A stretch of DNA of 16,228 nucleotides from a virus. Under the pieces are notes generated by a model, which was not told the origin of the DNA, made no database searches, and saw nothing but the letters and a program-made list of their open reading frames with translations. Shown piece by piece: positions 1 to 16,228 of this stretch. Position 1 is the stretch's first letter; the number at the start of each line of letters is the position of its first letter. The translations under genes were made by a program, and so were the position numbers. The stretch lies in UHGV virus genome UHGV-1335354; one strand, 5' to 3'.

Positions 1-55
1 AGAACGAGAGCTTCCCAAGCTCTATACGAGGGTTCGATTCCCTTCGCCCGCTCCA
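1..55 (+). tRNA. glyU: tRNA-Gly (anticodon CCC), 5' part cut by window edge; its 3' end is the attL side of the island
   Basis: Sequence matches the 3' two-thirds of enterobacterial tRNA-Gly(CCC) as I recall it: anticodon loop CTTCCCAAG, T-arm GGTTCGATTCC, acceptor 3' strand CGCCCGC, discriminator and CCA at 53-55. Confidence 0.9.
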
Positions 56-70
56 GAATCTCCCCAGGTG

Positions 71-759: not shown

Positions 760-770
760 ATGGTTATAGA

Positions 771-787: not shown

Positions 788-792
788 AATTA

Positions 793-1113: not shown

Positions 1114-1257
1114 GTAAATAATCCCAAGAGATAATGGTTATGTATTGATTTAAAGCGTTTTTAGATTAATGCATTAACTTAGCAAAATTAAGTCTTTTCT
1201 GATTGTTTGCAGAGTAAAAATGAGTTGCTTTCGAAATTATTTCGGATGTTTATTGTA

Positions 1258-1765: not shown

Positions 1766-2317
1766 TTACGCTTCCTGCTCTTTCTTGATACGTTGCACCG
1801 TCTGTGTGCTGACACTGAAATCTTTTGCTACGCTCCGAATTGATCCACCATTCGCGAGAGCGGCAACAATTCCCGCTCGATCAATTGCTTTTCCATTACC
1901 ACGTTTTGCTATACGCCCAGCTGCCTTAGCTGCGGCGATCCCTTCACGTTGACGCTCAAGCATCATTTCACGTTCCATTTGTGCCACTGCTGCAAGCACT
2001 GTGAGCATCATATTCCCTGCGGGAGAGTTCTTCCCTGTCTTAAAGTCTTCTTTATGGAAATGCACAGACACGCCGCGCTCTGTTAATTGCTCAACCGTTG
2101 CCAGAAGGTCGGCTGTATTACGGCAAAGGCGATCAATGCTGTGAACATGCAAAACATCACCTTCCCGCACATAGTTCATCATTGCCTCAAACTGTGGGCG
2201 CTGGGTATTCTTGCCTGACGCTTTATCTTCAAAGACTTTATCAAGAGTTACTCCAGCTAATTGACGGTCTGTGTTTTGTTGCACAGTCGATACCCTAATG
2301 TATCCAATATTAGCCAT
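1766..2317 (-). CDS. serine recombinase, small resolvase/invertase type (183 aa)
   Basis: N-terminus MANIGYIRVSTVQQNTDRQ with catalytic Ser at position 10, conserved R/D residues of the resolvase catalytic domain, C-terminal HTH (GGSIRSVAKDFSVSTQTVQRI). AGGA Shine-Dalgarno upstream. Confidence 0.85.
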   Translation of the reverse strand: MANIGYIRVSTVQQNTDRQLAGVTLDKVFEDKASGKNTQRPQFEAMMNYVREGDVLHVHSIDRLCRNTADLLATVEQLTERGVSVHFHKEDFKTGKNSPAGNMMLTVLAAVAQMEREMMLERQREGIAAAKAAGRIAKRGNGKAIDRAGIVAALANGGSIRSVAKDFSVSTQTVQRIKKEQEA

Positions 2318-2551
2318 TTTCTTTATTCCTTCTGTGTTGATTTGTGTGTAGTGATTATTGATCGTGTTGATTAGGTGTGTAAAGGACTTTTTTCACTACG
2401 AAATTCGAAGGTTTTTAGTGTGGTGATTTAGCCTGCTTTATCACTACACGTCTTGCATGAGAATCATGTAGTTACATTTTGGTAAAATTAGCAAGCTATT
2501 AAATAGTGTGTTTATTTTGAAAAAATAATTTTTTGTTGCATTAAAGGAAAC

Positions 2552-2585
2552 TTGTTCAATAAATGGTAGAACATTTATTGAGCAA
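2552..2585. promoter_or_regulatory. 34-bp palindrome (14-bp arms, 13/14 match, 6-bp spacer): candidate protein-binding or recombination site
   Basis: TTGTTCAATAAATG-gtagaa-CATTTATTGAGCAA read from the sequence, ~235 bp upstream of the serine recombinase start. Confidence 0.35.
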
Positions 2586-2940
2586 CAATTTTGCAGTGAT
2601 ACGCTATATGCCGCATTACATAAGGCTTTGCTGATGATAATGTAAAAGTGAAGAAAGTAAGAATTGCACTTTGAAGCTACTTTTCATTGCATTTTTTAGT
2701 ATGGAATTACACGGAATAAACTATGAATATTCTACGATTTACACGAGATATTCTTGCTGTTTAATTCCGGCTTTGGAGATCAGGCATTCGCAAGAATACG
2801 CTAACGCGTTGCCTGAAAAGCCATTGCACATAATAGAGGTGAGCGTATAGCGATACACTAATCATAACAACATCTTCTTACTTTTTAGTTAGTTAGTTGT
2901 TAGTAGGTTATTGTTATGCGCGCTATTAGCGCATGTATAA

Positions 2941-2989
2941 AGGTATCATTTTTATCTAAAGGGGCTTTAGACATTTTTGATACCTTTTT
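2941..2989 (+). terminator. bipartite hairpin (outer 8-bp and inner 6-bp stems) followed by a T-run; candidate rho-independent terminator or structured RNA
   Basis: AGGTATCA...CTAAAG-GGG-CTTTAG...TGATACCT followed by TTTTTC. Confidence 0.35.
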
Positions 2990-3025
2990 CTGTGCAAGAC
3001 ACTTACCAGTGTATAGTGCGGTTTC

Positions 3026-3077
3026 CCTACCTACCCAGGAAATGAGTTCCTACCTACCCAGGAAATGAGTTCCTACA
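3026..3077. repeat. 23-bp perfect tandem direct repeat, 2.3 copies (CCTACCTACCCAGGAAATGAGTT)
   Basis: Copies at 3026-3048 and 3049-3071 are identical, followed by partial copy CCTACA. Confidence 0.9.
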
Positions 3078-3084
3078 ATACTAT

Positions 3085-3106
3085 AATTAAACTACAATTA
3101 AACTAT
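3085..3106. repeat. 11-bp AT-rich tandem repeat x2 (AATTAAACTAC / AATTAAACTAT)
   Basis: Read directly from the sequence, immediately after the 23-bp repeats. Confidence 0.7.
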
Positions 3107-3239
3107 CTTTTATAAATTCTTTTATCTTTTAAAGAATAATTATAGGGATACCCGTTAGGGAGTCTTCGACTATCCCTTAATCTATTGGCATTCGCCAGAA
3201 CCTTGCACAAGTTAGACTGATGCTTGTCATAACAGATAG

Positions 3240-3287
3240 TTTTTGTTTTTTGTTTTTTGTTTTTTGTTTTTTGTTTTTTGTTTTTTG
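3240..3287. repeat. heptanucleotide microsatellite (TTTTTTG), about 7 units
   Basis: G at 3245, 3252, 3259, 3266, 3273, 3280 and 3287 with T6 between each; perfect periodicity of 7. Confidence 0.95.
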
Positions 3288-3943
3288 TTAGTAGTTAGCT
3301 GATCTATGTTCGCTTTCCGCTCACAACGAATATGTAATCTACTATGTGCAAATAGCCTACGGCTTGCGTATGGCTAATAGTCTTGCGCTGTGCGCAGAAC
3401 GATAATTAACTAACTACCATCTAACGATTGAAATTTACTTGTGCAATAACCTGAGCGTAAGCGAATGGTTGTTAGTGTCGCGTTACCCTTTGGGGATGCT
3501 AACGCATAACATGACAAAACAACCAACAACAAAAAAGAAAGAATGGTTTTTGTAGTTGAAGGTTAAATAAGATTCTACCGCTTAAATCAAGCCGTAGGCG
3601 AGCTTAACAGGGTAATGTAAGGGAAACACCTTAGCGGTAATAGATTAGCTCGTTACAGAGCTTCTGAGAACTTTGCAGGTATTTTATAAGATGTCTGAAA
3701 TCAGAGTTTATCTATCCACCATCTTTCCATCATCTGATAAATCAAAAATAAGACCCTTAAATAAGCCTCTGACGAGATAAACAACCTCTACATAAGGGAA
3801 TGTATTGTTTTTATCAAAACCCCGTCAGAGTGCGATTGAGAGCGTTTTAGACAACAGGGAAGAATTGTACCAGAGTAGGCAGCACAAAAAGCTAAGAAAA
3901 ATTATAAGAAATTGAAAATGATCAAATTTTTTATAAAAGAGGG

Positions 3944-3972
3944 TTGACAAAGCCGCCGTTATGTAGTATTGT
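3944..3972 (+). promoter_or_regulatory. candidate sigma70 promoter for the rightward small-gene operon
   Basis: TTGACA (3944-3949), 17-bp spacer, TATTGT (3967-3972); about 115 bp upstream of the first gene. Confidence 0.45.
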
Positions 3973-4088
3973 AAGTAGGGAGGGGAGAAACATCTCTCTC
4001 CATCTAAATAATCAAATCACAGAACACTGCACTTTGAGCCGTCAGGCTGCAAGGTGTGTTTTTCTTTTATCTAAATAAGGAGTTTTTT

Positions 4089-4271
4089 ATGAAATGGTAT
4101 ACACCGGAACACGTCGTAGAGGCATTTAAAAAAGGTGAGCTAACACGACATCAAGTAAGGATGAACAGGAACACAGCGCGGCGCTGTGGTTATCCAGAGC
4201 GTGAAAAATGCTTTGACGATGCACTAAAAATTATTGATGAACTGCGTAAGGCAGAAGCAGAGAAAGAATAA
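4089..4271 (+). CDS. hypothetical small protein (60 aa); ORF track start 4056 is probably too far upstream
   Basis: ATG at 4089 preceded by TAAGGAG at optimal spacing; protein MKWYTPEHVVEAFKKGELTRHQVRMNRNTARRCGYPEREKCFDDALKIIDELRKAEAEKE. Confidence 0.5.
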   Translation: MKWYTPEHVVEAFKKGELTRHQVRMNRNTARRCGYPEREKCFDDALKIIDELRKAEAEKE

Positions 4272-4294
4272 TAACAGGAGAAGGAGAAAACCAA

Positions 4295-4471
4295 ATGAAT
4301 ATTAATTTTGATTCTGCAACTTATAACGCGTTGTTAAATCGTGCAAAGGCAGAAGGGAAATCAATTCCAAAACTTGTTAATGAATTACTAATTACAGTCC
4401 TTACAAAGGAGGAACTAAATGAACCAAAACACCAAAACAATTGCCGAAGCAAAAGCGCAATGCCTCAATAA
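4295..4471 (+). CDS. unannotated small ORF (58 aa), possible ribbon-helix-helix (CopG/Arc-like) DNA-binding protein
   Basis: Hand-translated: MNINFDSATYNALLNRAKAEGKSIPKLVNELLITVLTKEELNEPKHQNNCRSKSAMPQ; GGAGAAGGAG upstream; N-terminal 40 aa resemble an RHH fold by composition; overlaps the next gene by 53 nt in another frame. Confidence 0.4.
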   Translation: MNINFDSATYNALLNRAKAEGKSIPKLVNELLITVLTKEELNEPKHQNNCRSKSAMPQ

Positions 4472-5084
4472 GAAAGATAGTAAACAAACATATGTAGTAG
4501 TTGAACAATGGCTGAAGATGTTTAAAAAGTGGTTCTCACCGTCAGGTAAGGAATACACCGCGACACTTCCAGCCGTTGAAATCTACAGTTACGTAGCTGG
4601 GTTCAATGAACAAGGGCAAGAATGTTACGCCAATCAAAAAACATTAGCTAATATTGGAATGGTTAGTGATCGTCAGGTGCGTAATATTATAAATATGTTT
4701 ATTGATATGGGTGTTCTTTCTGTAGAGGCACGGGACGGGCAAACATCACTCTATAAAGCATTACCCTTTACAGATGCACACATCACACCACCGGAAGACG
4801 TAAAAACCTCTGTAAACGTAGAACAGCCTGCACCTGAAACACAGGAACCGTTAGAAGCGACACACTCTATTGAGCAGGAAACACAGGCAGAAATCACGGA
4901 ACAATCTGATCTTTTTACATGGCTTATTTCCATAGACAGCCAAAAGCCTATGCAAGAAGAAACAGAAAATTTTATAAAACGTGCACTGACCTCGAAGAGG
5001 ATAATTCTTGAAGATGATGCTTTTAATGCACTGATGATAGCCCTGAGAAAAGAAAGTGAAATCTATGACTCAATACCATTTTAA
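4419..5084 (+). CDS. putative winged-helix/HTH DNA-binding protein (221 aa), replication-initiator-like or regulator, with acidic low-complexity C-terminal half
   Basis: AAGGAGG Shine-Dalgarno 7 nt upstream; central segment ECYANQKTLANIGMVSDRQVRNIINMFIDMGVLSV resembles HTH modules of phage/plasmid replication initiators; no Walker motif. Confidence 0.55.
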   Translation: MNQNTKTIAEAKAQCLNKKDSKQTYVVVEQWLKMFKKWFSPSGKEYTATLPAVEIYSYVAGFNEQGQECYANQKTLANIGMVSDRQVRNIINMFIDMGVLSVEARDGQTSLYKALPFTDAHITPPEDVKTSVNVEQPAPETQEPLEATHSIEQETQAEITEQSDLFTWLISIDSQKPMQEETENFIKRALTSKRIILEDDAFNALMIALRKESEIYDSIPF

Positions 5085-5096
5085 GGAGAATAAAAA

Positions 5097-5354
5097 ATGA
5101 AATACAACCTGACATTAAACAAACGAACATTCGAAATTACAGAAAGCGGCTACACACTGGCAAAACAGATCGCTGATAGCAATTATAAGCTACCCGCGAT
5201 TATCAGCTTTCAGGAGTTACCGCACAGTAAAGAACACACACAGCATTGGCTAAATCACCTAAGCCATTTTGGGGTAATTCAGTATGAAGCTGTGAATAGT
5301 CAGACGTTCCGTTTGCTCGAGGTAAACCCGTTTGAATTGTGGATGACACTGTGA
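5097..5354 (+). CDS. hypothetical protein (85 aa)
   Basis: ATG preceded by AAGGAG; part of the co-oriented operon; no family recognised. Confidence 0.5.
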   Translation: MKYNLTLNKRTFEITESGYTLAKQIADSNYKLPAIISFQELPHSKEHTQHWLNHLSHFGVIQYEAVNSQTFRLLEVNPFELWMTL

Positions 5355-5557
5355 TCATATTCGATGGCGAATTTTCACAAGAAATCTTTCTGCAATATTT
5401 ACGGGAAAGAACGGGAATGATTCTGTTTGATTCTGAGTTTTCCGGTGTGGTAGGTGAGCAATTTTTATATGCTCTTCTCGATAACCTAAGTAAACAAGGA
5501 TTATTGCAGTATACAAAAACTCATATGAAAGCATTCAGAATCGACTCTGTAGCTTAA
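5339..5557 (+). CDS. hypothetical protein (72 aa), GTG start overlapping the upstream gene
   Basis: Open frame with GTG at 5339 overlapping the preceding stop; no family recognised. Confidence 0.35.
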   Translation: MDDTVIIFDGEFSQEIFLQYLRERTGMILFDSEFSGVVGEQFLYALLDNLSKQGLLQYTKTHMKAFRIDSVA

Positions 5558-5685
5558 AACAAACAACAAACAACTATCAAACATCTTGAAGGGTGAAACA
5601 ATGGAAAGCTTAATATTTTTCTTAGTATTTATGATCGCTTCCTTTTTTAACACTGCAACAAGAAAAACAAAACGAAGGGGAAGCA

Positions 5686-6066
5686 ATGAGCAAGAAAAAA
5701 GGCAAGAAAAACGTAATAACAACTATTGGCGAAGCATGTGATCAGTATGCGTTAAACAATCCTCGCAAATATAATTATGAGCATGATGCACAACCAGGCG
5801 AGGAATTGATCTTTATACTTGAAGAACCAAGCCCAGAATTGACAGACGAAGAATTATCAATCATTCAAAGTATGGATGGTGTTTACTTCAATCCGCGCCC
5901 ACGCAAAACAACAATCATTGATAGTAGTCTTCTTAAAAGATGGCAGTGTTTAGGCTTCCAGGATATGAATCATTTTCGTGGCTACATGGCTCTTAATAGT
6001 TTGCAGTATGCAGGCGCAAGAGAGACAGAGTTACTTATGCTTGAAAGAATAAAAATAGACGATTAA
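5686..6066 (+). CDS. hypothetical protein (126 aa), lysine-rich N-terminus
   Basis: ATG preceded by GAAGGGGAAG; no family recognised. Confidence 0.5.
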   Translation: MSKKKGKKNVITTIGEACDQYALNNPRKYNYEHDAQPGEELIFILEEPSPELTDEELSIIQSMDGVYFNPRPRKTTIIDSSLLKRWQCLGFQDMNHFRGYMALNSLQYAGARETELLMLERIKIDD

Positions 6067-6107
6067 CAGCGTTGGCTGAATATAACCCTTAACAAAAGGA
6101 AAATAAA

Positions 6108-6329
6108 ATGATTAACAAAGCAATTTTAGAGACAACCACTTTTCATGATCTTAAGCTTCTTTCAGAATGTTTTATAAATATTATTGAACGTGCAAAGGAA
6201 GAGAACGATCTGGCAACTCTGGATGACGTTGTAGACAACATTGCAACTTATAAAATCCCGCTCACTATTGCTATGAAGAAAGCACGCGAAGCACAACAAA
6301 AATTAGAACAATTAGAGGAAGTGGCATAA
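6108..6329 (+). CDS. hypothetical small acidic protein (73 aa)
   Basis: ATG preceded by AAAGGAAA; stop overlaps the next start (ATAATGA). Confidence 0.5.
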   Translation: MINKAILETTTFHDLKLLSECFINIIERAKEENDLATLDDVVDNIATYKIPLTIAMKKAREAQQKLEQLEEVA

Positions 6330-6643
6330 TGAGCGAAGTTCACACCGTAACTATTCAGCTATACGATTTAATCATCGACCTTCAAAAATCTGTTAACGAA
6401 GCCATAGAAGATCCGACAGAATTTAATATAGGAAAAGCCGTTCTCAATCTTCAATCTCTACATGATGCAATGTCAATGTTAGTTGTAGCTTGTGAGGAGG
6501 CCGAAGGCGGGAAAGTTGATGCAGAAGATCTTGCAAACTTCAATCTCATGTTGGCTGATTGTAGTTGTGTTGTTCAAAGTGCAATAGAAGACTTACAGCC
6601 GCTTATTGATAACCTGTTAAGGGGTAAGCATGAGCAACTTTAA
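6329..6643 (+). CDS. hypothetical strongly acidic protein (104 aa)
   Basis: GAGGAAG Shine-Dalgarno; Asp/Glu-rich composition; translationally coupled to neighbours. Confidence 0.5.
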   Translation: MSEVHTVTIQLYDLIIDLQKSVNEAIEDPTEFNIGKAVLNLQSLHDAMSMLVVACEEAEGGKVDAEDLANFNLMLADCSCVVQSAIEDLQPLIDNLLRGKHEQL

Positions 6644-6863
6644 AACTAAGCGTGTGGAGTGCCTGGCGCTCTCTGAGATGGGCGTGTCCTGCGCCTGTTT
6701 CACCATTGGAAAGATCTATACCGGACTACTGAACACAGAGAATAGCTTGATGGTTATCACTGATGACAACGGCAACAACCAGGCGGTTGTAGTGGGCGGT
6801 GCGTGTGCTTTCGGTAGCTGGAAACTGACTACAAAGAAAAATGAAAATAGCACGAATAGCTAA
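6630..6863 (+). CDS. hypothetical small cysteine-containing protein (77 aa)
   Basis: AAGGGG upstream; overlaps the upstream stop; local GC higher than neighbours. Confidence 0.45.
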   Translation: MSNFKTKRVECLALSEMGVSCACFTIGKIYTGLLNTENSLMVITDDNGNNQAVVVGGACAFGSWKLTTKKNENSTNS

Positions 6864-6872
6864 AGATATACA

Positions 6873-6901
6873 TTGACTTTATAACAAGAATGTTATATAA
6901 T
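6873..6901 (+). promoter_or_regulatory. near-consensus sigma70 promoter with no convincing ATG-initiated ORF downstream
   Basis: TTGACT (6873-6878), exactly 17-bp spacer, TATAAT (6896-6901). Confidence 0.45.
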
Positions 6902-6956
6902 AATAAATATGCTTGGAAGATGATAAAGCAAGGATTGCATATTCTCCAATTATATC

Positions 6957-7316
6957 TTACCTCTGCAGCCTCTTATTGTCAATAAGAAAATCTAAGAGAC
7001 GGCGACCGCCACGATCGCCCATCTCTTTAAAACAGTTTTTAGAAAACATCCTCGTGTTTTTCATTGTTGGGTCTGTTCTGATTAGTTTTTCCCTTTTGGT
7101 AAGCGCGGTAGTTTCATTCCTTTTCTGCCGCTGCTTATTTTCAACAAAGAAAAGTTTTCTAAAAGCTGTTTTATAACAGCCTATACCCCTATAAGTTATT
7201 GAACGTTTCTTGGCTGGGTATATGCCTTGCGGCATAAAATCACTATTAAAATTATGTTTCCAACCCGTAGCAAGTTGAGCGTAGTTGAGTGATTCCTTGT
7301 TATCTGTTCTCGCCAT
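6957..7316 (-). CDS. possible basic protein (119 aa, Lys/Arg-rich); may be spurious
   Basis: ATG-initiated minus-strand ORF, weak and poorly spaced Shine-Dalgarno, rare codons; start codon is embedded in a palindrome; lies antisense to the orphan promoter. Confidence 0.25.
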   Translation of the reverse strand: MARTDNKESLNYAQLATGWKHNFNSDFMPQGIYPAKKRSITYRGIGCYKTAFRKLFFVENKQRQKRNETTALTKREKLIRTDPTMKNTRMFSKNCFKEMGDRGGRRLLDFLIDNKRLQR

Positions 7317-7345
7317 ACCTGATGGGCGTCAGGTTATGAACAGAT
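7302..7345. promoter_or_regulatory. nested inverted repeats (outer ATCTGTTC/GAACAGAT, inner CCTGA/TCAGG): candidate operator or RNA structure
   Basis: Read from the sequence; arms share the CAGAT/CCTGAT motif with the terminator stem at 7431-7477. Confidence 0.35.
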
Positions 7346-7430
7346 AGCGCCTTGCGCCAGTTACACATCCCTTACGGTCGGTGAATCCTAAATAGCCAAC
7401 TACCTGGTAACGGTGCATTGTATTTGAGAA

Positions 7431-7486
7431 AACAGATCAGGAAAGACTTTCCAAAGGGTCTACTCGCCTGATCTGTTCTTCTTTTT
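7431..7486 (+). terminator. long-stem hairpin followed by a T-run: candidate rho-independent terminator
   Basis: Perfect 11-bp stem AACAGATCAGG / CCTGATCTGTT with a 25-nt loop, followed by CTTCTTTTT. Confidence 0.5.
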
Positions 7487-7591
7487 AGAACATATAACAA
7501 TGACTGATCATTCTTATATGCTCTTCTCATGAAAGTATATAATCAATGTTATGCTTAATTCGAACATTAAAACCCCCCTCTAATTAATATA

Positions 7592-7619
7592 GCCAGCCTA
7601 CCCGCTGGCATATTTTTAT
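7592..7619 (+). terminator. short hairpin plus T-run, second candidate terminator before the structural-like operon
   Basis: GCCAGC-ctaccc-GCTGGC followed by ATATTTTTA. Confidence 0.35.
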
Positions 7620-7656
7620 AAGTGGAAAACAAATCTGTTATAAATGGGACCACTCC

Positions 7657-7860
7657 ATGAAAAAACAAGACATGATAATCAGTAAAGACGGGGAAACGAT
7701 GACTGTTAGTGATGAAAACATCCTTAAAGTTGCCGCACTGTTGGGAGTTACTCCCGAAAGTCTTCGCTCTACTACTGAACAATTGTTTAAATCTGCTAAT
7801 AATGCGGAAACACCCGCACAGGCTATTTTAAACCGAATCACACAACTGAAAGGAAAATAA
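7657..7860 (+). CDS. hypothetical small protein (67 aa), first gene of the structural-like operon
   Basis: ATG-initiated; predicted largely helical C-terminal half; scaffold-like role is speculation. Confidence 0.45.
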   Translation: MKKQDMIISKDGETMTVSDENILKVAALLGVTPESLRSTTEQLFKSANNAETPAQAILNRITQLKGK

Positions 7861-7865
7861 TATAT

Positions 7866-8252
7866 ATGGCTAACCCATACGGCGTTAAATTCGCCCCTGT
7901 AAACGCGAGCAATGACCTTGTGCGTTGCAAAATTATCGCCTATTCCGGCGATCCCCTGCTGCAAGACCGTTTAATCACACTGGCGGCACCACTGACAGAA
8001 GATGTTATTGTCGGTGATCTGCTGAAAGCTGATGGCACCAAAGCAACCGCCGCCGCTGATATCGCTTACGTCGCTGTAGAACCTTCGTTTGCAGGTCAGG
8101 AAAGCGTAGTGGTTGCACATCCTACTTTCGTTATTCTGGCGCGTGCTGGTATCGAATTTAACGGCATGGCAGAAGAAAGCGTGATCTCAAAACTGCAATC
8201 TATTGGTTTCGTGATCGCTGGTTATTCCGAAGCTGCAATCCCTACTACTTAA
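7866..8252 (+). CDS. possible phage head decoration-like protein (128 aa)
   Basis: Size, position directly upstream of the capsid-sized gene, and a loose pattern resemblance to lambda gpD/SHP-type decoration proteins; E. coli-like codon usage. Assignment unverified. Confidence 0.55.
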   Translation: MANPYGVKFAPVNASNDLVRCKIIAYSGDPLLQDRLITLAAPLTEDVIVGDLLKADGTKATAAADIAYVAVEPSFAGQESVVVAHPTFVILARAGIEFNGMAEESVISKLQSIGFVIAGYSEAAIPTT

Positions 8253-8270
8253 TATAAGGAAATATAAATA

Positions 8271-9305
8271 ATGAATATTCAAGAATTATTTGGTCGTCAG
8301 GCGAGCGTAGTAAGCCCATTCGAATATGAGCAAGGCTTAAACCTGCTGTTCTCTTCCCTGGAGATCTTTGATAAGCAATCTCACAGCACTAACAGTATTC
8401 TTCTGACTACTGCAATTGAAAGCTTTATGCAGATTGCAAATGAGCAAGAACCCTACGCACAAAGTCAGTGGGACTCAAGCAAGCGCGGCACCTTCTCAAA
8501 CGTAATGTTTGAAATGAAGCACCTTGCAACCATCAACAGCGTGACAAGTCGTGATCTTGAACAGTACAGCCGTAAAAATCTTTCTACTGCTGACTCTATG
8601 CTGCTGGCGATCAATGATTTTGCTAATCAGCATTACCGCTCACATGAGAACGCTGTAGAACGTGATCTGCTGCGTGCAATCCTCACGCTGAAAGTAGAAT
8701 CTCAATTTGCAGGTCAAGGTGATATTGATTTGCTGGAAGGTGACGCTAAAACCGTAGCGCCTGCAATTGACTTCACAAGCACTACCGTAAACCCTTACCG
8801 TGCACTGGCTAAGATTGTTCGTCAACAGTCTAACATTCTGGGCGAATCCCTTGCGGCTAAACGTTCCGGTGTTCTTGTGCTGGCTGCTGGCGGCGCTGCT
8901 GATGGTCTGCGTTACAACGATATGCTGAAAGATCAGGTTGTTTACTCCAGCAATGCACAGGCAAGCGCGGCAGTAACTAAGATCGTAGCTGATAACCCAG
9001 CGTATGATGCTTTCCAGCTTGCACAGGTGACTGTTATTGATGTTAGTGACTTCCCGTCAATCGTTGCAGAAATCGGTGAAAATGGTTTGGTTGTGATCCC
9101 GCTGTTCCCTGCTGATGTTCAAGCTTACGTGCTGCATACAGGCGTCGCGGTCCGTCATGCCGAACACGGTAAAGATGCGGAAACACATCACCAATATCTG
9201 ACACAGGATCAGTTTATGTTCCCGTCAGTGTGCACCGAAACGGCTTACCTGCCATTCATTCAGAAAGTAGTTGCTAAAGCGATTATCTTCTCTGAAGCAC
9301 AGTAA
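8271..9305 (+). CDS. possible major capsid protein of the lambda gpE-like family (344 aa)
   Basis: AAGGAA Shine-Dalgarno; length matches gpE (~341 aa); N-terminal segment QELF...FEYEQGLNLLF resembles the gpE N-terminus as I recall it; follows the decoration-like gene as in lambda D-E order. No alignment run. Confidence 0.6.
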   Translation: MNIQELFGRQASVVSPFEYEQGLNLLFSSLEIFDKQSHSTNSILLTTAIESFMQIANEQEPYAQSQWDSSKRGTFSNVMFEMKHLATINSVTSRDLEQYSRKNLSTADSMLLAINDFANQHYRSHENAVERDLLRAILTLKVESQFAGQGDIDLLEGDAKTVAPAIDFTSTTVNPYRALAKIVRQQSNILGESLAAKRSGVLVLAAGGAADGLRYNDMLKDQVVYSSNAQASAAVTKIVADNPAYDAFQLAQVTVIDVSDFPSIVAEIGENGLVVIPLFPADVQAYVLHTGVAVRHAEHGKDAETHHQYLTQDQFMFPSVCTETAYLPFIQKVVAKAIIFSEAQ

Positions 9306-9347
9306 GAATAATAACGCTCCAGCACGTTAAAAAATAATGCTGGCGAT

Positions 9348-9414
9348 AAAGGGCAAAAGGGATTAACTAACCTGTAAAGCAAATACAGTAACGGATCTCT
9401 TTGCCCTTTTTTCG
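9348..9414 (+). terminator. long hairpin (AAGGGCAAA ... TTTGCCCTT) followed by a T-run downstream of the capsid-like gene
   Basis: 9-bp perfect stem with ~42-nt loop then TTTTTCGTTT; an inner 6-bp inverted repeat CCAGCA/TGCTGG lies at 9318-9342. Confidence 0.4.
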
Positions 9415-9448
9415 TTTATACCGTCTATTAAATATTGAGAGAAAAATC

Positions 9449-9649
9449 ATGAGCGAACAAAACAAACAAGTAGAATTATATAAAGCAGTGCGCACACTGG
9501 CAGAAAACACCGATGAATCCATTGTAAACGTTAGCGCCTTATGCCGTTTTCTGGATGTGGATCATAATCGTGTGCGTCAATATGCACATTACCACAATGT
9601 AAGTGCAATCGCGGCTATTCAGTATGTGATGAATAACCCTGTAAAATAA
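9449..9649 (+). CDS. hypothetical small protein (66 aa); ORF track start 9401 is a TTG inside the upstream hairpin
   Basis: ATG at 9449 preceded by GAGAGAAAAATC; no family recognised. Confidence 0.45.
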   Translation: MSEQNKQVELYKAVRTLAENTDESIVNVSALCRFLDVDHNRVRQYAHYHNVSAIAAIQYVMNNPVK

Positions 9650-9667
9650 TAAAAGGAGTACCCAACA

Positions 9668-11515
9668 ATGAGTTTAGATATTTCTGTATCTACTTTAAAA
9701 AATACAGTAACCTTTGTTACCGATCATAAAAGCCTGAATAAAGCTAAAGCAGAAGTTGAAAAACTCCGTAAGCAAATGTCAGCCGTGAAAGACGTAGAAA
9801 TACGTGTTAAGACACACAAACAATCAACAGCTAAAACAAAAAAAGACGTAGACGATATTGCTAAAAAGCAAGCACAGGTAGATAAGGCAAATCTCAAAGC
9901 ACAAAAAGCGGCTCAACGTGTAGCGGCGCGAGAACAAAAAGCCCTGGCAGCACGCAAAGAGAAAGCAGAATTAAAACTGTTAGATGTTGGATCAAGTATT
10001 AGTGCAATGAATCGTCTTAATGTGTCTGAACAATACAAAGCTATTGCACAAGCTAAAGCTATTGCACACGAATATGAGAAGGGCGCTATTAGCCTGGCAC
10101 GTATGAATAGCCAAATGAAACGACTTCAACAGCAACAACGTAAGATTAACGGCAATCGTAACGCTCATGCTAAAGCTTATGCACCTGTTAAGGGTAGCGG
10201 GAGTATTGGCGGCGGTGCTGCTGCTGTTATGCTGGGCGGCTTAGGCGCTGGCGCTGCATTCTTGGCTATGAGTAAAGCAAACGAATTCGTTGCTAATAGT
10301 TTTGCCAATGCTGAGACACAAGGTGAATTATATAGCCGTGCGAAGCTGGGCGGTGTAGACGTTAACCAGATGAATAATATTGAGCAATGGGCGTATAAAA
10401 ACGGCGTTGATTCAATGATGGGCGAACAAGGGAAACGTAAATACCTCGACCAAATGAAAGATGTGCGTGAACGTGCAACCAAATCTTATGATGAGACTGA
10501 ATATGTAGTTGATAAAAAAACTGGTAAAGGGGAATGGAAGGGCGGCGATTCAGGTATTAATACTTTATTAAACGAAGGTTTCTTAACTAAGAAAGATTTA
10601 AAAGACTTCGCTAATAATCCGGCAGGTTTAATAAGTAAAGCAACACAAGGAATGGTGGCGAAAGGTTATTCTGATGCACAGGTGGGGTCACGGCTTGAAG
10701 ACCTGGGAGATGACCTTATGTTGACCTCCAAATATTGGACACGATCCGCTAAAGAAGTGGAACAATCAGCCCGTGAACAAAAAGAATCAGGACGCTGGAT
10801 AACGCAGGCACAACAGGAAAGCGTGATTAAATTCCGTGAACTGAATAATGCACTTACCGGACTTTCTGACTCACAAGGGATCGCCTTTGTTGATGGCTTT
10901 ATGAAATCTCTCGATCCTGCTGTGATTGAAGAATTTAAAAAGAGCATGGTTGCAATGCTGCCAATGTTTACCAAATTGGGCGAGGCTGTAGGGGGGCTGC
11001 TTAATGCGATCATGAAAACTATCAACTGGTTGATGAAAAATGACGAGAAGACGGCAGCTATTCAGAAGAATTTAGGTGATGCCCCTCCTTTAAGTAATGA
11101 AGGAATGAAGAAGAATTTAGATAATCTCACTCCTGATCAATATAAAGGCGCTGGCACTGCAACAACTGCACCGGATAATAGTAACTCTCTGTTTAATACT
11201 ATTAAGGGCTTTTTTGTTAATGGTGATGATTCTCCTTCTGGCGGTCAGGCTGCAATGCAATATGACGTTACAGGGCAAAACATTGCCAACCTGAAAAACA
11301 GTGCTGCACAGCAAGCTATGCAAGCTCCAGCCTACACATTTGCGCCTGTTCTCAATTTTGCACCTGAATTACAAGTTAATGCACAAGTGCCGCTAACTAT
11401 TCAGAGTGATACCGGACGATTGAGCGATTATATCGACTTCAAATCTAAAGCCTCTGCCGCTGAGTTTAGCAAGCTATTAACCCTGGGCGTTATGTCAGGC
11501 GGGTCAACCTATTAA
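9668..11515 (+). CDS. coiled-coil, glycine-rich protein (615 aa), tape-measure-like
   Basis: AAGGAG Shine-Dalgarno; N-terminal ~160 aa K/A/Q/E-rich coiled-coil-like; Gly/Ala hydrophobic segment GSGSIGGGAAAVMLGGLGAGAAFLAMS; no enzymatic motif or Walker A seen. Confidence 0.6.
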   Translation: MSLDISVSTLKNTVTFVTDHKSLNKAKAEVEKLRKQMSAVKDVEIRVKTHKQSTAKTKKDVDDIAKKQAQVDKANLKAQKAAQRVAAREQKALAARKEKAELKLLDVGSSISAMNRLNVSEQYKAIAQAKAIAHEYEKGAISLARMNSQMKRLQQQQRKINGNRNAHAKAYAPVKGSGSIGGGAAAVMLGGLGAGAAFLAMSKANEFVANSFANAETQGELYSRAKLGGVDVNQMNNIEQWAYKNGVDSMMGEQGKRKYLDQMKDVRERATKSYDETEYVVDKKTGKGEWKGGDSGINTLLNEGFLTKKDLKDFANNPAGLISKATQGMVAKGYSDAQVGSRLEDLGDDLMLTSKYWTRSAKEVEQSAREQKESGRWITQAQQESVIKFRELNNALTGLSDSQGIAFVDGFMKSLDPAVIEEFKKSMVAMLPMFTKLGEAVGGLLNAIMKTINWLMKNDEKTAAIQKNLGDAPPLSNEGMKKNLDNLTPDQYKGAGTATTAPDNSNSLFNTIKGFFVNGDDSPSGGQAAMQYDVTGQNIANLKNSAAQQAMQAPAYTFAPVLNFAPELQVNAQVPLTIQSDTGRLSDYIDFKSKASAAEFSKLLTLGVMSGGSTY

Positions 11516-11562
11516 TCATCGCTGTGGGGCTGTTTAGCCCCCTTAAATAAGGATTACAAATT

Positions 11563-12240
11563 ATGGCTTATGGTGCTTTAACCATCGGACGACCGACAGA
11601 ATCACAAGTAAACAGCACAAGTAACGATTCTAACGCGAAAGCGACGAAAGGACAGAACGGTTTCGCTATCATCACCTCTAACCTCGGCAGTGGTGCTAAT
11701 GCTGCGTATGCAGAGTATCAAGCTCTCAGCTTTGACAGCGTGGAATCGACAAAAGTTAGTCGCAATGCGGACGTAACAAGCTATGCCGTTCAGGATGGGG
11801 CTATGGTGTCCGATCACATCCAGATCAAGAACAATAAGTTTTCATTGCAAGGGCGCGTAAGTGAAACAGTATTGAAGCTTAACCCTGATATGCTTAAGAA
11901 CGCGGGTATTAACGGCAATCGTAGAATGCTTATGCTTGAATACCTAAATCAGATCATGGACTCACGCCAGCCCTTCATGTTGATAACAGAACATCGTAAT
12001 TTTGACAATGTGGTGCTGGTTGGGATTGATTACGAAGAAGAAGCCAGCGAATCATTGCTCTTTAATCTTGAATTCGAACAAATACGCCTTGTGAGCTATG
12101 CAACCACTAACGCTATTGCTACAAAGACACAGAGCAATAAATCGACAGGTGGCAGTGTTAAAACTAAGGTTAACCCGACACCACAAAAAGCACCTACGAG
12201 TACAGGTGAGGACGTTATAACGCCAGTATTTAAACAATAA
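11563..12240 (+). CDS. hypothetical protein (225 aa), last gene of the structural-like operon
   Basis: AAGGA Shine-Dalgarno; followed by a hairpin; no family recognised. Confidence 0.55.
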   Translation: MAYGALTIGRPTESQVNSTSNDSNAKATKGQNGFAIITSNLGSGANAAYAEYQALSFDSVESTKVSRNADVTSYAVQDGAMVSDHIQIKNNKFSLQGRVSETVLKLNPDMLKNAGINGNRRMLMLEYLNQIMDSRQPFMLITEHRNFDNVVLVGIDYEEEASESLLFNLEFEQIRLVSYATTNAIATKTQSNKSTGGSVKTKVNPTPQKAPTSTGEDVITPVFKQ

Positions 12241-12282
12241 CAATAGCGGTACTATAAAATGCTCCGTAACGAGATAATCCTA

Positions 12283-12313
12283 AAAGAGGCTCCCATTACA
12301 AGGAAGCCTCTTT
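12283..12313. terminator. hairpin between convergent genes (AAAGAGGCT ... AGCCTCTTT), candidate bidirectional terminator
   Basis: 9-bp perfect stem with 13-nt loop, T-rich 3' flank, between stop at 12240 (+) and stop at 12334 (-). Confidence 0.5.
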
Positions 12314-12333
12314 ATTGCGCCTATGGCGTTGTT

Positions 12334-13554
12334 TTAAGCCTTAAAATCAATATTTAATTCATATCTTACTAATTCTACATATTCAGCTAATTCTTGAATG
12401 CTTGCCCCTTGTGAGTAGGTGCGAAAGGCTTCTGTTTTAGCTATCTGCTCTGTATGTCCGGTAATGGCTCCGATCCGCTGTTCAGGCACTCCGGCACGAT
12501 CAAGACAAGTGATAAACATCCCGCGCAAGCTGTGAAAGCATTGTCTATTTGTAGCGATTGGCAAGACGCTACGACGTAAACGTGAGAATGCTTGAGAATA
12601 GAAAGGGCCTTTCTTACCGTCGATTCTTTTTACTTTGTTCGAGTGAGGGAACAAATATTCACCATAATTATGATTTAAATATTCATCGACAATAATCGAT
12701 AGTCTCGAATGTATCGGAACGTGCCTGATCCCTGCTTTAGTCTTACTTTTGCTGATATAAAAACAGCGTATTCCTTCCACAGTTACAACTTCTGACTTTT
12801 TCAGGCTTGCCAGTTCGTCTAATCTGCATCCTGAAAACAAGCCCATTAAAATAATATTTCTGATCTCCGGCTCCGCTGCATCAAGTAGCTTTTGCATTTG
12901 TTCAGGTGTAAACGGTTGATAACTCTCGATTGTGCGACGTGCTTCGAGGTTATGACCGTGAAAAGGGTTACTGTCTGGTATTCCGTCATAACGGCGTTTA
13001 GCAAATTCATAGAGCGATCCTAAGCATGTAAGCCAGTTTTGACGAGATTGATCGGCTGCTCCTCGTTGCTTCTGGTCATCTAAGAATACTGTTACAAGCC
13101 GTCTGCCTATTTTCTCAATATGAATATCATCTTTCTGAATGCTTTGTAAAAATAGCTCAACGGCCCTTGCTGATTTCTGTAGTGTTGAGTATGAACGACG
13201 CTCTCTGTAGCATTCGGCGTATTCGTCACGTATTAGGCACAGGGAAGGCGATGCATAACCGCGTTTTACGGCTCTTTGCGTGTTTTTATTGGCCCTTGCC
13301 TCTGAATGTAAGGATTCAATAGCTTGTTGTAACCTCCTTTCGGGGTTATCAGGATTATGTTTCCGCTTTAGTTCCTCCCATTCTAATAATAGATGGTTTC
13401 TGAATCTTCTCGCCTCATTCAGATCTCGTGTAGATGTGCTTTTTCTCCACAACTTGTAAGGGTAAAGATGACGTAAGTATTTAGGAACAAAAATCTGAAA
13501 CATCCAGATCCCATCTTTTCTCTTAAATAAGTATGCTTGGCTCTTGATCGACAC
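12334..13554 (-). CDS. int: tyrosine-type site-specific integrase (406 aa), GTG start
   Basis: C-terminal catalytic-domain signature: Arg in GCRLDE, HSLRG box, ITGH, terminal Tyr region; AGAGGA Shine-Dalgarno 8 nt before GTG; lies 86 bp inside the right direct repeat. Confidence 0.9.
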   Translation of the reverse strand: MSIKSQAYLFKRKDGIWMFQIFVPKYLRHLYPYKLWRKSTSTRDLNEARRFRNHLLLEWEELKRKHNPDNPERRLQQAIESLHSEARANKNTQRAVKRGYASPSLCLIRDEYAECYRERRSYSTLQKSARAVELFLQSIQKDDIHIEKIGRRLVTVFLDDQKQRGAADQSRQNWLTCLGSLYEFAKRRYDGIPDSNPFHGHNLEARRTIESYQPFTPEQMQKLLDAAEPEIRNIILMGLFSGCRLDELASLKKSEVVTVEGIRCFYISKSKTKAGIRHVPIHSRLSIIVDEYLNHNYGEYLFPHSNKVKRIDGKKGPFYSQAFSRLRRSVLPIATNRQCFHSLRGMFITCLDRAGVPEQRIGAITGHTEQIAKTEAFRTYSQGASIQELAEYVELVRYELNIDFKA

Positions 13555-13631
13555 GATAATGATCCTCTATTATCACGTAATCAGTTACCTATGATTGATC
13601 ACAAAATCTTTATTTTACAGCAGGTTATTAT

Positions 13632-13661
13632 GGGTTTCCTCGATTCCCTTCGCCCGCTCCA
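13632..13661 (+). repeat. attR: direct repeat of the tRNA-Gly 3' end
   Basis: 13640-13661 is identical (22/22) to tRNA positions 34-55 (TCGATTCCCTTCGCCCGCTCCA); upstream GGGTT also matches with a 3-4 bp insertion. Confidence 0.85.
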
Positions 13662-13893
13662 ATTTATCTTCACCTCATCAATCTGCCATTTTTGCTGTAT
13701 CTGATTTTCTATATTATCTTAATTCAATCGCTTCAGACTTTTCGCAATCGCCGTAATACTTCCCCATTTTTTTGTAAATAAAAGCGTTTACGCAATGCAA
13801 TCCATTTGTAACAACCCAGGTAAAATACCTTATTTTCAAGTTGTTAAATAAGTGGTTATCTACGCTTTTAACAAACGATTGATGGAATATTTT

Positions 13894-15504
13894 ATGAAAG
13901 GGAAATCTGCATTAACTCTTCTGCTCGCTGGTATATTTTCGTGCGGCACATGCCAGGCGACAGGGGCAGAAGTGACGAGTGAATCTGTATTTAACATTCT
14001 TAATTCCACGGGGGCAGCAACTGATAAAAGTTATTTATCGTTAAATCCAGATAAGTATCCTAATTATCGTCTTCTGATTCACTCAGCCAAATTAAAAAAT
14101 GAAATAAAGAGCCACTATACCAAAGACGAAATTCAAGGGTTGTTAACATTAACAGAAAACACACGAAAGTTAACGTTGACGGAGAAACCCTGGGGAACAT
14201 TTATTCTTGCTTCTACTTTCGAAGATGACAAAACAGCGGCAGAAACCCACTATGATGCTGTCTGGCTGAGGGATAGTTTATGGGGCTATATGGCATTAGT
14301 ATCAGATCAGGGAAATAGTGTAGCCGCAAAAAAGGTTCTGCTCACCCTGTGGGATTATATGTCTACGCCCGACCAGATTAAGCGGATGCAGGACGTCATT
14401 AGCAACCCCAAACGACTGGATGGAGTTCCCGGGCAAATGAATGCTGTGCATATCCGATTTGACAGCAACTCCCCCGTGATGGCAGATGTGCAGGAAGAAG
14501 GCAAGCCGCAGCTGTGGAACCATAAACAAAATGATGCGTTAGGTCTTTATCTTGATCTCCTTATACAAGCAATCGACACTGGTACAATTAACGCTGAAGA
14601 TTGGCAAAAAGGTGACCGATTAAAATCGGTTGCGCTGCTGATTGCTTATCTGGATAAAGCCAATTTCTATGTTATGGAAGATTCCGGAGCGTGGGAAGAA
14701 GATGCCAGATTAAACACATCTTCCGTTGCACTGGTGACCTCTGGACTGGAACGTTTGTCGAACTTACTCTCGAAGAAAGACTCTGTTTTTGTCTCTGATT
14801 TACTACGCGAAGCTAAAGCCAATGAACTGGATGAACCTCTTTCAACAACGAGGTTGAACCACCTCATAGATAAAGGTTATGAAAGAATAACGTTACAGCT
14901 TGATTTAGGGGGAGAATCCCCAGGTTATCTGGAAAAAGATAAACATTACAGAGAAGCCGATGCGGCTTTACTTAATGTTATTTATCCTGCAAATCTTTCA
15001 AAGATAAATACCAGAAGAAAAGAGCAAGTTCTAAAAATAGTTAAAAAACTAGCAGGTCCGTATGGTATAAAAAGATACGAGAAGGATAATTATCAGTCGG
15101 CAAATTTTTGGTTCAATGATATTAAAACCGATACCGATCAAAATTCACATGCAAAAAGAGAAATGAGCTTCATTCCATCAACAGAAGCAGAATGGTTTTT
15201 TGACTCATGGTATGCAAAATCAGCAGCAATTGTTTATAAAGAATCAAGAAAAGAAGAGTATTTGAATGACTCAGTGCAATTTATGAATAGATCATTGGCC
15301 CAAATAACAGGCGAGAATATGATTGGTGCAAATGGCAGGAGCGTACCAGAAATGGCACTTCCCGAAAGCTATAACTATATCCACAAGTCGGGAACTTTGC
15401 ATGAAGCGCCAAGCCCTATCATTCCGCTAAATTGGTCGAAAGCTTCAATGACTCTCATGTTGAAAGAGATGTCCAATCTTATCAATGATGAGGGAATTAA
15501 ATAG
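13894..15504 (+). CDS. secreted or lipid-anchored glycoside hydrolase family 15-like protein (glucoamylase-like); alternative starts at 13852 (GTG) and 13882
   Basis: Signal peptide MKGKSALTLLLAGIFSCGTCQA; GH15-type motifs VWLRDS and EDSGAWEED...NTSS (WEE general-acid region). Lies outside the island. Confidence 0.65.
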   Translation: MKGKSALTLLLAGIFSCGTCQATGAEVTSESVFNILNSTGAATDKSYLSLNPDKYPNYRLLIHSAKLKNEIKSHYTKDEIQGLLTLTENTRKLTLTEKPWGTFILASTFEDDKTAAETHYDAVWLRDSLWGYMALVSDQGNSVAAKKVLLTLWDYMSTPDQIKRMQDVISNPKRLDGVPGQMNAVHIRFDSNSPVMADVQEEGKPQLWNHKQNDALGLYLDLLIQAIDTGTINAEDWQKGDRLKSVALLIAYLDKANFYVMEDSGAWEEDARLNTSSVALVTSGLERLSNLLSKKDSVFVSDLLREAKANELDEPLSTTRLNHLIDKGYERITLQLDLGGESPGYLEKDKHYREADAALLNVIYPANLSKINTRRKEQVLKIVKKLAGPYGIKRYEKDNYQSANFWFNDIKTDTDQNSHAKREMSFIPSTEAEWFFDSWYAKSAAIVYKESRKEEYLNDSVQFMNRSLAQITGENMIGANGRSVPEMALPESYNYIHKSGTLHEAPSPIIPLNWSKASMTLMLKEMSNLINDEGIK

Positions 15505-15635
15505 TTTTCATAATGAGTTACAGCACAACGTTGGGTATTGACTGAGCAAGATGAACGACAAGGACAACGACATCAGCCTTATGAGGAGCAAGAAAATGAA
15601 AGCAAATTCGAAAACGATCAGAAGGATGAAAGTTA

Positions 15636-16228
15636 ATGTTCGGTCTGAGGAAAGTAAATCGAAACACTCATACGTTTGAAACCACTTTTCAAAATTGGAA
15701 AGAAAATGGCGAAGATGTTGCATTATTAATGCCCGAATTTAGTGCTAAATGGCTACCGATAGCAGAAGAGAGTGGCAGCTGGTCTGGATGGGTATTGCTT
15801 GGAGAAATATTTCCCTTAATTTCATCTGAGCTCGCTGGGATGGCTTTAATGCCAGAAACGGAAAGGTTAATAGGGGAATGGCTCAGTTTATCCAGTTCCC
15901 CGTTAAATCTAAAGCATCCTGAACTAAAATATAATCGTTTGCGCGTAGGTAAAGTATTTGATGGAGTATTGAGCCCTGCTCAACCACTAATAAGAATATG
16001 GACAGGGGAATTGAATCTTTGGTTAGATAAAGTCACAGTCTGCCAATACGGAAACGCTCCAGCGTTAGACAAAAAATCGTTATATTGCTCCATTCATTTT
16101 GTAATTGGATTTAGTAAAACATGTTACAGAAGTCTTGTTGATATTGAAGTTGGTGATGTTTTATTAATCTCAAATAATTTGGCTTATGCGGTTATTTATA
16201 ATACAAAAATTTTTGATTTAATTTATCC
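15636..16228 (+). CDS. type III secretion SctQ/SpaO-family protein (EpaO-like), 5' part; continues past the window end
   Basis: GAAGGA Shine-Dalgarno; segments WSGWVLLGE...LAGMAL and HFVIGFSKTCYRSLVDIEVGDVLLI parallel Salmonella SpaO (WSAWIKPGDW...LAGAAV; RFVIGSSDTQRSLLGRIGIGDVLLI) as recalled. Confidence 0.65.
   Translation, partial: MFGLRKVNRNTHTFETTFQNWKENGEDVALLMPEFSAKWLPIAEESGSWSGWVLLGEIFPLISSELAGMALMPETERLIGEWLSLSSSPLNLKHPELKYNRLRVGKVFDGVLSPAQPLIRIWTGELNLWLDKVTVCQYGNAPALDKKSLYCSIHFVIGFSKTCYRSLVDIEVGDVLLISNNLAYAVIYNTKIFDLIY

Follow-up and report, generated by a model that had tools for sequence, protein, structure and literature searches.

The glyU end of the ETT2 island

The stretch of DNA analysed here (UHGV virus genome UHGV-1335354, from a virus; 16,228 nucleotides, referred to as the window) carries in its right-hand part, from 13640 to its end, a gene for a protein resembling enzymes of glycoside hydrolase family 15 (GH15), named pkgA or ygeQ, and the beginning of epaO, a gene of the SctQ/SpaO family of type III secretion system (T3SS) components. 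Both are genes of the second type III secretion system of Escherichia coli (ETT2), an island comprising ECs3703-3737 beside the tRNA gene glyU, with ECs3736/pkgA and ECs3737 listed as its last genes (PMC3977695). The features of this part of the window are as follows.

13662..13893, plus strand: native intergenic region between glyU and pkgA (232 bp, 31.5% GC), colinear with that of Sakai
13894..15504, plus strand: pkgA/ygeQ, encoding a full-length GH15-like (alpha/alpha)6 glycoside hydrolase of 536 amino acids
13894..13944, plus strand: signal peptide of the Sec type, with a lipobox at Cys17 (GIFS↓C), called by a heuristic scan
14695-14697: codon of E268, in the WEE motif of PkgA
15364-15366: codon of E491, in the LPESY motif of PkgA
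15517..15518: junction of an 8,737-bp deletion relative to Sakai, located by blastn and alignment
15517..15636, plus strand: 3′ stub of eivJ (SpaN/InvJ family; 39 codons and a stop, no N-terminus), read from its translation and colinear with the 3′ end of Sakai eivJ2
15636..16228, plus strand: 5′ part of epaO (197 codons; the gene continues past the end of the window), with an ATG at 15636 that overlaps the eivJ stop codon (TAATG)

From 13640 to 16228, the window is colinear with the glyU end of ETT2 in E. coli O157:H7 strain Sakai at 96-98% nucleotide identity, save for the gap of 8,737 bp, which was defined relative to Sakai by blastn and alignment. The site, the gene set and the gene order are those of Sakai in the shared parts. 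Sakai differs in that its pkgA is split (ECs_3737 and ECs_3736), in that it has the additional 8,737 bp, and in that no 13.6 kb element lies between glyU and the island. The genes lost from the window are ECs3735 (GhoT/OrtT-like), eivF, eivG, eivE, eivA, eivC, eivI, eivJ1 and most of eivJ2, among whose products are EivF (a regulator), EivG (secretin), EivE (gatekeeper), EivA (export gate) and EivC (ATPase). Because the secretin, the export gate and the ATPase are lost, the locus cannot build an injectisome, and any residual role of ETT2 here would stem from the surviving regulators.

The position is likewise that of ETT2, i.e., beside glyU and between actS/ygeR and yqeG: the two closest genomes, L001 (the best match to the whole window, 99.4% identical) and L062, both run actS-glyU-...-yqeG. 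The gene content is not that of an intact ETT2, as pkgA, the eivJ remnant and epaO are orthologous to the genes of the island and eivF to eivJ are absent. At the position of the stub, RefSeq annotates in both genomes a pseudogene of the "SpaN/EivJ family, missing N-terminus". Further downstream, the sctRSTU-type genes that had been expected beyond the end of the window were found in both of these near-identical genomes, which continue with sctR, sctS, sctT, a broken sctU, etrA, eprH-K, orgA, ygeK, pbl, ygeI, ygeH and ygeG, i.e., the rest of ETT2. Many of these are frameshifted, those in the closest genome being epaS, eprH, I, J and orgA. In close relatives, epaO leads into epaP-Q-R-S and the decayed remainder of ETT2.

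How common this form of the island is was determined in 5426 complete E. coli genomes. The 140-nt deletion junction is present in 1939 of them (including ATCC 8739), corresponding to about 60% of the 3202 that retain the 5′ part of epaO, and the 5′ part of the GH15 gene was found in 3976. Thus, the GH15 gene and epaO are variable island genes, not core genes. A 2024 review cites a deletion isoform of "8.74 kb" at the right end of ETT2 from avian pathogenic E. coli (APEC) (PMC11068852); the present deletion agrees with it in size (8,737 bp) and in lying on the glyU side, and from these two features the junctions are taken to be the same, the one described here being far more widespread than APEC. 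The locus is an already known one, the end of the ETT2 island, in a degenerate form that is very common. We are highly confident in the joint reading of the window as the glyU-proximal "right" end of ETT2 in its 8.74-kb deletion isoform, together with a separate element integrated at glyU and a PkgA that probably acts as a GH15 enzyme of the cell envelope. Within this reading, the sequence identity, the order of the genes, the deletion, the att sites, the fold and the conservation of the catalytic motifs are established; how PkgA is exported, what activity it has and on which substrate are predictions.

In the original prediction, the 13.6 kb element was described as abutting a SpaO-like gene and the hydrolase gene. 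These two genes are adjacent in the window, but this adjacency is secondary: an intact ETT2 has eight genes, spanning about 8.7 kb, between the GH15 gene and epaO, which come into contact here because 8,737 bp of ETT2 have been deleted, and the eivJ stub still lies between them. Both the stub of 39 codons (15517-15636) and the deletion junction (between 15517 and 15518) had been overlooked. In Salmonella pathogenicity island 1 (SPI-1), invH, not a GH15 gene, stands at the invF end. The spaN(invJ)-spaO order of SPI-1, with overlapping stop and start codons, is retained in the stub described here, whereas the deletion has removed all of the inv-like half of the operon. A GH15 enzyme beside a secretion apparatus had been regarded as an unfamiliar association; it has been on record since 2003, and pkgA/ygeQ has been reported as an end gene of ETT2 (PMC3977695, PMC2808357), and EC042_3075 lies at one end of ETT2 (PMC2808357).

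The original prediction was right in seeing the start of an SctQ/SpaO gene, which lies at 15636. The translated part matches the NCBIfam equivalog model NF006018 (YscQ/HrcQ) with 286.4 bits against a cut-off of 223, over residues 2-192 and profile positions 3-191. The score for TIGR02551 (82.7, cut-off 100.8) falls below the threshold because the window holds no more than 197 of the roughly 315 residues. The N-terminus (MFGLRK, compared with MFGLRH in EpaO of E. albertii) is aligned with profile position 3, and the E. albertii ortholog bears the domains SpaO_N and FliMN_C_rel. In L001, epaO is an intact open reading frame (ORF) of 315 amino acids from the MFGLRK start, and downstream of it come sctR, sctS, sctT and a truncated sctU. 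Judged by the equivalog match, the gene is a genuine SctQ; a flagellar FliN/FliM paralog was checked as the alternative, and the gene is not one.

Sakai epaO (L004 25787-26773) has a 1-nt deletion about 11 codons past the MFGLRK start, which led to its annotation from an ATG further upstream. The epaO alleles of the window, L001 and L002 are without this deletion, and the "frameshifted" label of L001 epaO in RefSeq apparently arose because of a Sakai-type reference.

Perhaps the deletion did more than remove genes, and made a new operon in which transcription of pkgA continues into eivJ′-epaOPQRS, placing the remnant of the export apparatus under a new promoter and possibly giving it a new role. 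The pkgA stop (15504) and the epaO ATG (15636) lie just 131 bp apart, a scan found no terminator-like site between the two genes, the GC-rich inverted repeat that lies 3′ of pkgA in Sakai is in the deleted segment, the stop codon of the stub overlaps the epaO start, and epaO is an intact ORF of 315 amino acids in L001. This argument is purely positional, however. The frameshifts in epaS, eprH, I, J and orgA of the closest genome give no sign of selection on the remnant machine, and the promoter/terminator scan yielded no promoter-like site in 13662-13893 and, over 13500-16228, no more such sites than in shuffled sequences, with none in the gap between pkgA and epaO. A new operon is considered unlikely.

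The element integrated at glyU

To the left of this end of ETT2, the window begins in glyU and is then occupied by the 13.6 kb element, the features of which are listed here.

1..55, plus strand: the 3′ 55 nt of glyU, tRNA-Gly(CCC), cut by the start of the window, identical to the 3′ part of the tRNA-Gly gene as annotated in L001, Sakai and K-12
34..55, plus strand: attL, a 22-bp core TCGATTCCCTTCGCCCGCTCCA forming the 3′ end of glyU, located by blastn and alignment against attR and the empty sites of Sakai and K-12
13640..13661, plus strand: attR, the second 22-bp copy TCGATTCCCTTCGCCCGCTCCA, located by blastn and alignment
12334..13554, minus strand: tyrosine integrase of the 13.6 kb element, outside ETT2 (Pfam Phage_integrase and DUF6538; RefSeq "tyrosine-type recombinase/integrase")
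1766-2317, minus strand: DNA invertase of the element
4419-5084: replication-initiator-like protein of the element
9668-11515: tape-measure-like protein of the element, 615 amino acids
11563-12240: tail-fibre/endolysin-like protein of the element, 225 amino acids

To the right of attR, the sequence runs on exactly as the native glyU flank of Sakai and K-12 when aligned, and in these two strains the site is empty, with glyU directly beside the GH15 gene. The 22-bp repeats, the native flank and the empty sites together mean that the 13.6 kb between the repeats is an element integrated in the 3′ end of glyU. An integrase adjoining the att site, a repeat of the 3′ end of the tRNA gene and an empty site in relatives, i.e., the marks of an island integrated in a tRNA gene, are all present. 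The original prediction, that ETT2 already occupied the tRNA-Gly locus and that the 13.6 kb element came to lie between the tRNA and the island, is upheld by the repeats and the empty sites. The element entered the 3′ end of glyU later than, or independently of, the deletion in ETT2, with duplication of 22 bp, and its insertion moved the tRNA gene 13.6 kb away from ETT2.

ARAGORN detected no tRNA in the window, because only the 3′ 55 nt of glyU are inside it. The absence of glyU that this result might imply was dismissed: the truncated copy at 1-55 is supported by identity and by Rfam, which reports a tRNA cut at its 5′ end at 1-52.

The element resembles the tRNA-targeting elements with a tyrosine integrase of the P4 type in its integrase near attR, in the direct repeat formed by the 3′ end of the tRNA gene and in the site that is empty in relatives; it differs from them in its cargo, a small phage-like set (invertase and replication-initiator-, tape-measure- and tail-fibre/endolysin-like proteins). 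It looks like a member of a small mosaic family, phage-like or satellite-like, that targets glyU (56-13639). The exact attR junction (13590-13720) was found in 143 of the 5426 genomes, most others matching only the half of the query that corresponds to the tRNA flank. Thus, this type of island is rare, while the underlying deletion isoform of ETT2 is common.

In other strains, the same integrase is accompanied by other cargo, among it a "major capsid protein", and only one of the complete genomes has at least 80% of the whole window in common with it. In the spacer between glyU and ygeQ, K-12 lacks 76 bp (window 13672-13747) that are present in Sakai and in the window.

PkgA, its fold and its predicted export signal

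The gene between attR and the deletion junction encodes an intact protein. Along its whole length, PkgA shows 98% identity to an E. coli cluster of intact 536-amino-acid proteins with 13,903 members, and its identity to an intact protein of 538 amino acids in E. albertii is 77%; hence it is not a fragment. RefSeq labels the ORF "glycoside hydrolase family 15 protein", and it is full length in every listed near-identical genome. PkgA is the product of the same gene as YgeQ (b2863; EC042_3075). In K-12, YgeQ (b2863) is an N-terminal fragment of 264 amino acids, as against 536 in the window: the gene has been cut by the insertion sequence (IS) IS2 into this fragment and the pseudogene ygeP, and the homology to ygeQ ends at window position 15030, where IS2 and ygeP begin. 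No functional study of the gene came up in the literature under ygeQ, ECs3736, EC042_3075 or b2863. When the plasmids of PLSDB were searched by tblastn with PkgA, the matches were only mislabelled chromosomes and one remote actinomycete sequence, so that the gene is on no known plasmid in that database.

Membership of the GH15 type is indicated by profile, motifs and fold. Pfam PF00723 is matched at residues 94-411 with 25.6 bits (cut-off 22, E 7e-6). In an alignment of 35 homologs, W124-x-R126-D127, H210-K-Q-N-D-A215, W267-E268-E269, R394-Y395-x-x-D398-x-Y400 and E491 are invariant; these we take to be the substrate-binding motifs of GH15, with E268 and E491 presumably the general acid and base equivalent to E179 and E400 of the Aspergillus niger enzyme, as judged by motif and not by superposition. 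The AlphaFold2 model of PkgA has a predicted local distance difference test (pLDDT) score of 89 and a predicted template modelling (TM) score (pTM) of 0.90. With this model, Foldseek retrieved, with a probability of 1.00, the GH15-like domains of human phosphorylase kinase (PhK) alpha and beta (E 1e-12), the bacterial GH15 glycosidase 5z3a (TM 0.73 on the target; the isomaltose glucohydrolase of Kribbella flavida) and fungal glucoamylases; dextran dextrinase was also among the best matches. PhK alpha and beta also ranked first in a profile search of the sequences in the Protein Data Bank, so the PhK domains are the best matches in both sequence and fold.

With the characterised GH15 enzymes (Aspergillus glucoamylase 1gah/3eqa, 5z3a and dextran dextrinase 9ju0), PkgA has in common the (alpha/alpha)6 barrel, the motifs WxRD, WEE and R-Y-x-x-D-x-Y and the C-terminal catalytic Glu; it differs from them in its low identity (11-18%), in having neither the N-terminal beta-sandwich nor a starch-binding domain, and in its predicted lipid-anchored or periplasmic location. 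From these motifs and the modelled fold, PkgA is most likely a catalytically competent, inverting exo-glycosidase of the GH15 type, and its predicted substrate would be a glucan or an oligosaccharide in the cell envelope.

The location is predicted from the N-terminus, MKGKSALTLLLAGIFSCGTCQA, which combines a basic n-region with a hydrophobic core (Kyte-Doolittle mean over 10 residues of 2.5) and a lipobox at Cys17. All three elements of a Sec signal can be recognised in MKGKSALTLLLAGIFS-C-GTCQA; the call was made by a heuristic scan with a PROSITE-type lipobox pattern. Most of the first 24 residues are unstructured in the AlphaFold2 model, where pLDDT drops under 50 at residues 1-5 and 13-24 and the block mean for residues 1-20 is 45. 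In K-12, the product is annotated as "putative lipoprotein YgeQ". A survey covering 113 full-length homologs showed a hydrophobic N-terminus in 74, of which 26 also have a lipobox, including those of E. albertii and of several Bdellovibrionota. Read in this way, PkgA is probably exported by the Sec pathway and lipid-anchored at Cys17, as an enzyme of the envelope rather than a protein injected by a T3SS; such a signal suits a location in the periplasm or an anchor in the outer membrane. The prediction of a signal-bearing GH15-like hydrolase immediately to the right of attR is thus confirmed by the intact ORF of 536 amino acids, the Pfam match and the Sec/lipobox N-terminus; that it could be a pseudogene fragment was considered and is contradicted by the full-length matches.

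The surroundings of more distant homologs suit a catabolic glycosidase of the envelope that feeds an importer. Among 111 neighbouring proteins surveyed, at loci mostly from Bdellovibrionota, the commonest immediate neighbours are ATPases of MalK-type ABC transporters and sugar-type ABC permeases (domains ABC_tran 8, BPD_transp_1 7, TOBE_2 6, OB_MalK 5). At Bdellovibrionota loci (L024-L029, L034 and others), the GH15-like gene often directly follows genes for a sugar-type ABC permease and a MalK-type ATPase. At another locus (L064; GCA_036745875.1, 3619-11611), a homolog with 47% identity lies beside genes of the MdoG/OpgG-like, GT2 (OpgH-like) and PF10091 "Glycoamylase" families, the last of which is a family of GH144-type beta-1,2-glucanases. 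This single case hints at periplasmic glucan as the substrate of the family, whereas the survey of neighbours pointed instead to MalK-type importers.

A supposed GH15 paralog with 50% identity in "Shigella flexneri SFBU0723" (L028, CP182557.1) was rejected as the product of an error-ridden assembly of the same deletion-type ETT2: in this record, a species representative, every ETT2 gene is split into overlapping tblastn pieces of low identity.

A different function for PkgA, that of an ETT2 effector injected into host cells, was reportedly proposed by Pallen in 2003 and has been repeated in later papers. Substrates of T3SSs leave the cytoplasm without Sec or lipobox signals. PkgA has been described as related to glucoamylases and to PhK alpha and beta, with the 2003 suggestion that it acts as an ETT2 effector on host glycogen (PMC3977695, PMC2808357). 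The suggestion is stated both in the genome paper of strain 042 and in a 2014 review of ETT2, and it accords with the terminal position that pkgA has in the ETT2 of both E. coli and E. albertii, with the eukaryotic PhK domains as the nearest solved relatives in sequence and fold, and with the recurrence of homologs beside T3SS genes of the SPI-1 type in other contigs. The absence of a Sec signal that is expected of an effector is not what was found, however: the scan gives PkgA a classical Sec signal with lipobox, and annotators of K-12 labelled it a lipoprotein. Homologs with such signals occur widely, among others in Bdellovibrionota, Elusimicrobiota and Commensalibacter, without an ETT2 homolog nearby and often next to sugar ABC importers. 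Moreover, many genomes that carry the 8.74-kb deletion (the junction being that of the 1939 genomes) retain an intact pkgA, although they are unable to assemble an injectisome. The signal, as predicted, argues against the published guess, and it appears very improbable that PkgA is injected to act on host glycogen metabolism; a Sec-exported enzyme of the envelope accounts better for its N-terminus.

GH15 genes and type III secretion clusters

Whether PkgA, as an envelope enzyme, nevertheless has some connection with T3SSs depends on what accompanies its closer homologs. In E. albertii, the order is actS-GH15-ghoT-eivF..., the GH15 gene lying about 560 bp downstream of actS at the position of glyU in E. 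coli, with no inserted element. Nine close homologs (45-77% identity) were picked by hand from the best hits, mostly on short metagenome contigs of enterobacterial type with no taxon assigned and with many IS elements, and all nine have T3SS-type genes within 10 kb, in differing arrangements, such as the following.

L055: GH15 gene divergent from prgHIJK-orgAB
L058: prgK-orgA-orgB-GH15 on one strand
L061: GH15-ghoT-hilA-like-SLT-luxR-orgBA-prgKJIH
L059: invH-ghoT-GH15
L060: GH15 gene near eivF-like and SicA-like genes
L056: hilA-like, SLT and luxR genes 7 kb away
L050 (Yersinia enterocolitica): T3SS tip-protein gene 10 kb away
L063: GH15 gene near a weak EspG-like match

The T3SS proteins of these contigs are 27-73% identical to those of ETT2 and thus belong to distinct systems. 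A second companion is a small ORF of the GhoT/OrtT type (YdcX, PF10753), which lies beside the GH15 gene in six settings: ETT2, E. albertii, Y. enterocolitica and three contigs.

L004 35356-35535 (Sakai ECs3735): GhoT-like ORF
L053 11687-11866: GhoT-like ORF
L050 11696-11839: GhoT-like ORF
L060 8286-8438: GhoT-like ORF
L061 5502-5669: GhoT-like ORF
L059 3144-3317: GhoT-like ORF

This recurrence is suggestive of a conserved module of two genes. The corresponding gene of ETT2 falls within the 8.7 kb missing from the window.

Three of the contigs can be compared more closely with ETT2. On L058 (GCA_033038075.1, an E. coli assembly; contig of 3,982 bp), L055 and L061, the EprK-like proteins are 56-58% identical to EprK of Sakai, and the GH15 genes are 49-65% identical to that of the window. 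L055 also carries ParA/ParB-like genes and L061 a TraI relaxase gene, which suggests plasmid-borne systems resembling ETT2. The prgK-orgA-orgB-GH15 arrangement of L058 has no counterpart in the 5426 complete E. coli genomes, where only the IS fragment of the contig is matched, and no clusters of the L055, L058 and L061 types were found in complete E. coli genomes or PLSDB.

Possibly, then, the GH15 gene and its GhoT-like neighbour are not passengers but a functional accessory in the envelope for injectisomes of the ETT2 type, engaged, for example, in remodelling periplasmic glycan. That every one of the nine close contexts holds T3SS-type genes within 10 kb, in varied arrangements, speaks for this, as does the low identity to ETT2, which marks the systems as different. 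The contexts are few, however, and hand-picked, rich in IS elements and without assigned taxon, so that hitch-hiking in pathogenicity islands or on plasmids could explain them. In addition, pkgA persists intact where the T3SS has been deleted, more distant homologs (47% and 56% identical) stand in contexts other than T3SSs, and the link to T3SS function is one of location. To our knowledge, neither SPI-1 nor Mxi-Spa has such a GH15 gene, which also counts against an accessory role. Such a role is therefore possible but doubtful. The narrower proposal, that PkgA and the GhoT/OrtT-like protein form a two-gene module which, across several rearrangements and in different lineages of enterobacteria, has travelled with ETT2-like clusters of the SPI-1 family and serves as an envelope accessory in the processing of periplasmic glycan, is put forward only tentatively and held to be rather improbable. 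A true functional link between GH15 proteins and T3SSs would, overall, be the less expected outcome.

This recurrent linkage does leave room for a role of PkgA related to T3SSs, and it is one of several points that weigh against reading the window as a degenerate end of ETT2 with an envelope enzyme. The window stops inside epaO, so that the genes further downstream are known from relatives alone, the best match being 99.4% identical; the Pfam score for GH15 is barely above its threshold; 39 of the 113 homologs surveyed are without a hydrophobic N-terminus; and the lipobox has Phe at position -2, with an alternative site for signal peptidase I (CQA↓T) present.

For the reading preferred here, of a degenerate ETT2 end with a Sec-exported PkgA, the consequences are modest. 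Correct filing of the locus as degenerate ETT2 keeps a "GH15 next to SctQ" arrangement from passing as a new system and has in itself little discovery value. Counts of the "attrition" of ETT2 may be slightly inflated if intact epaO genes are flagged as frameshifted. What interest remains lies in the conflict between the Sec/lipoprotein signal of PkgA and the published idea that PkgA is an effector, which merits a direct test, and in the recurrent module of a GH15 gene and a GhoT-like gene near clusters of the SPI-1 type, which offers a cheap lead for studies of ETT2-like systems.

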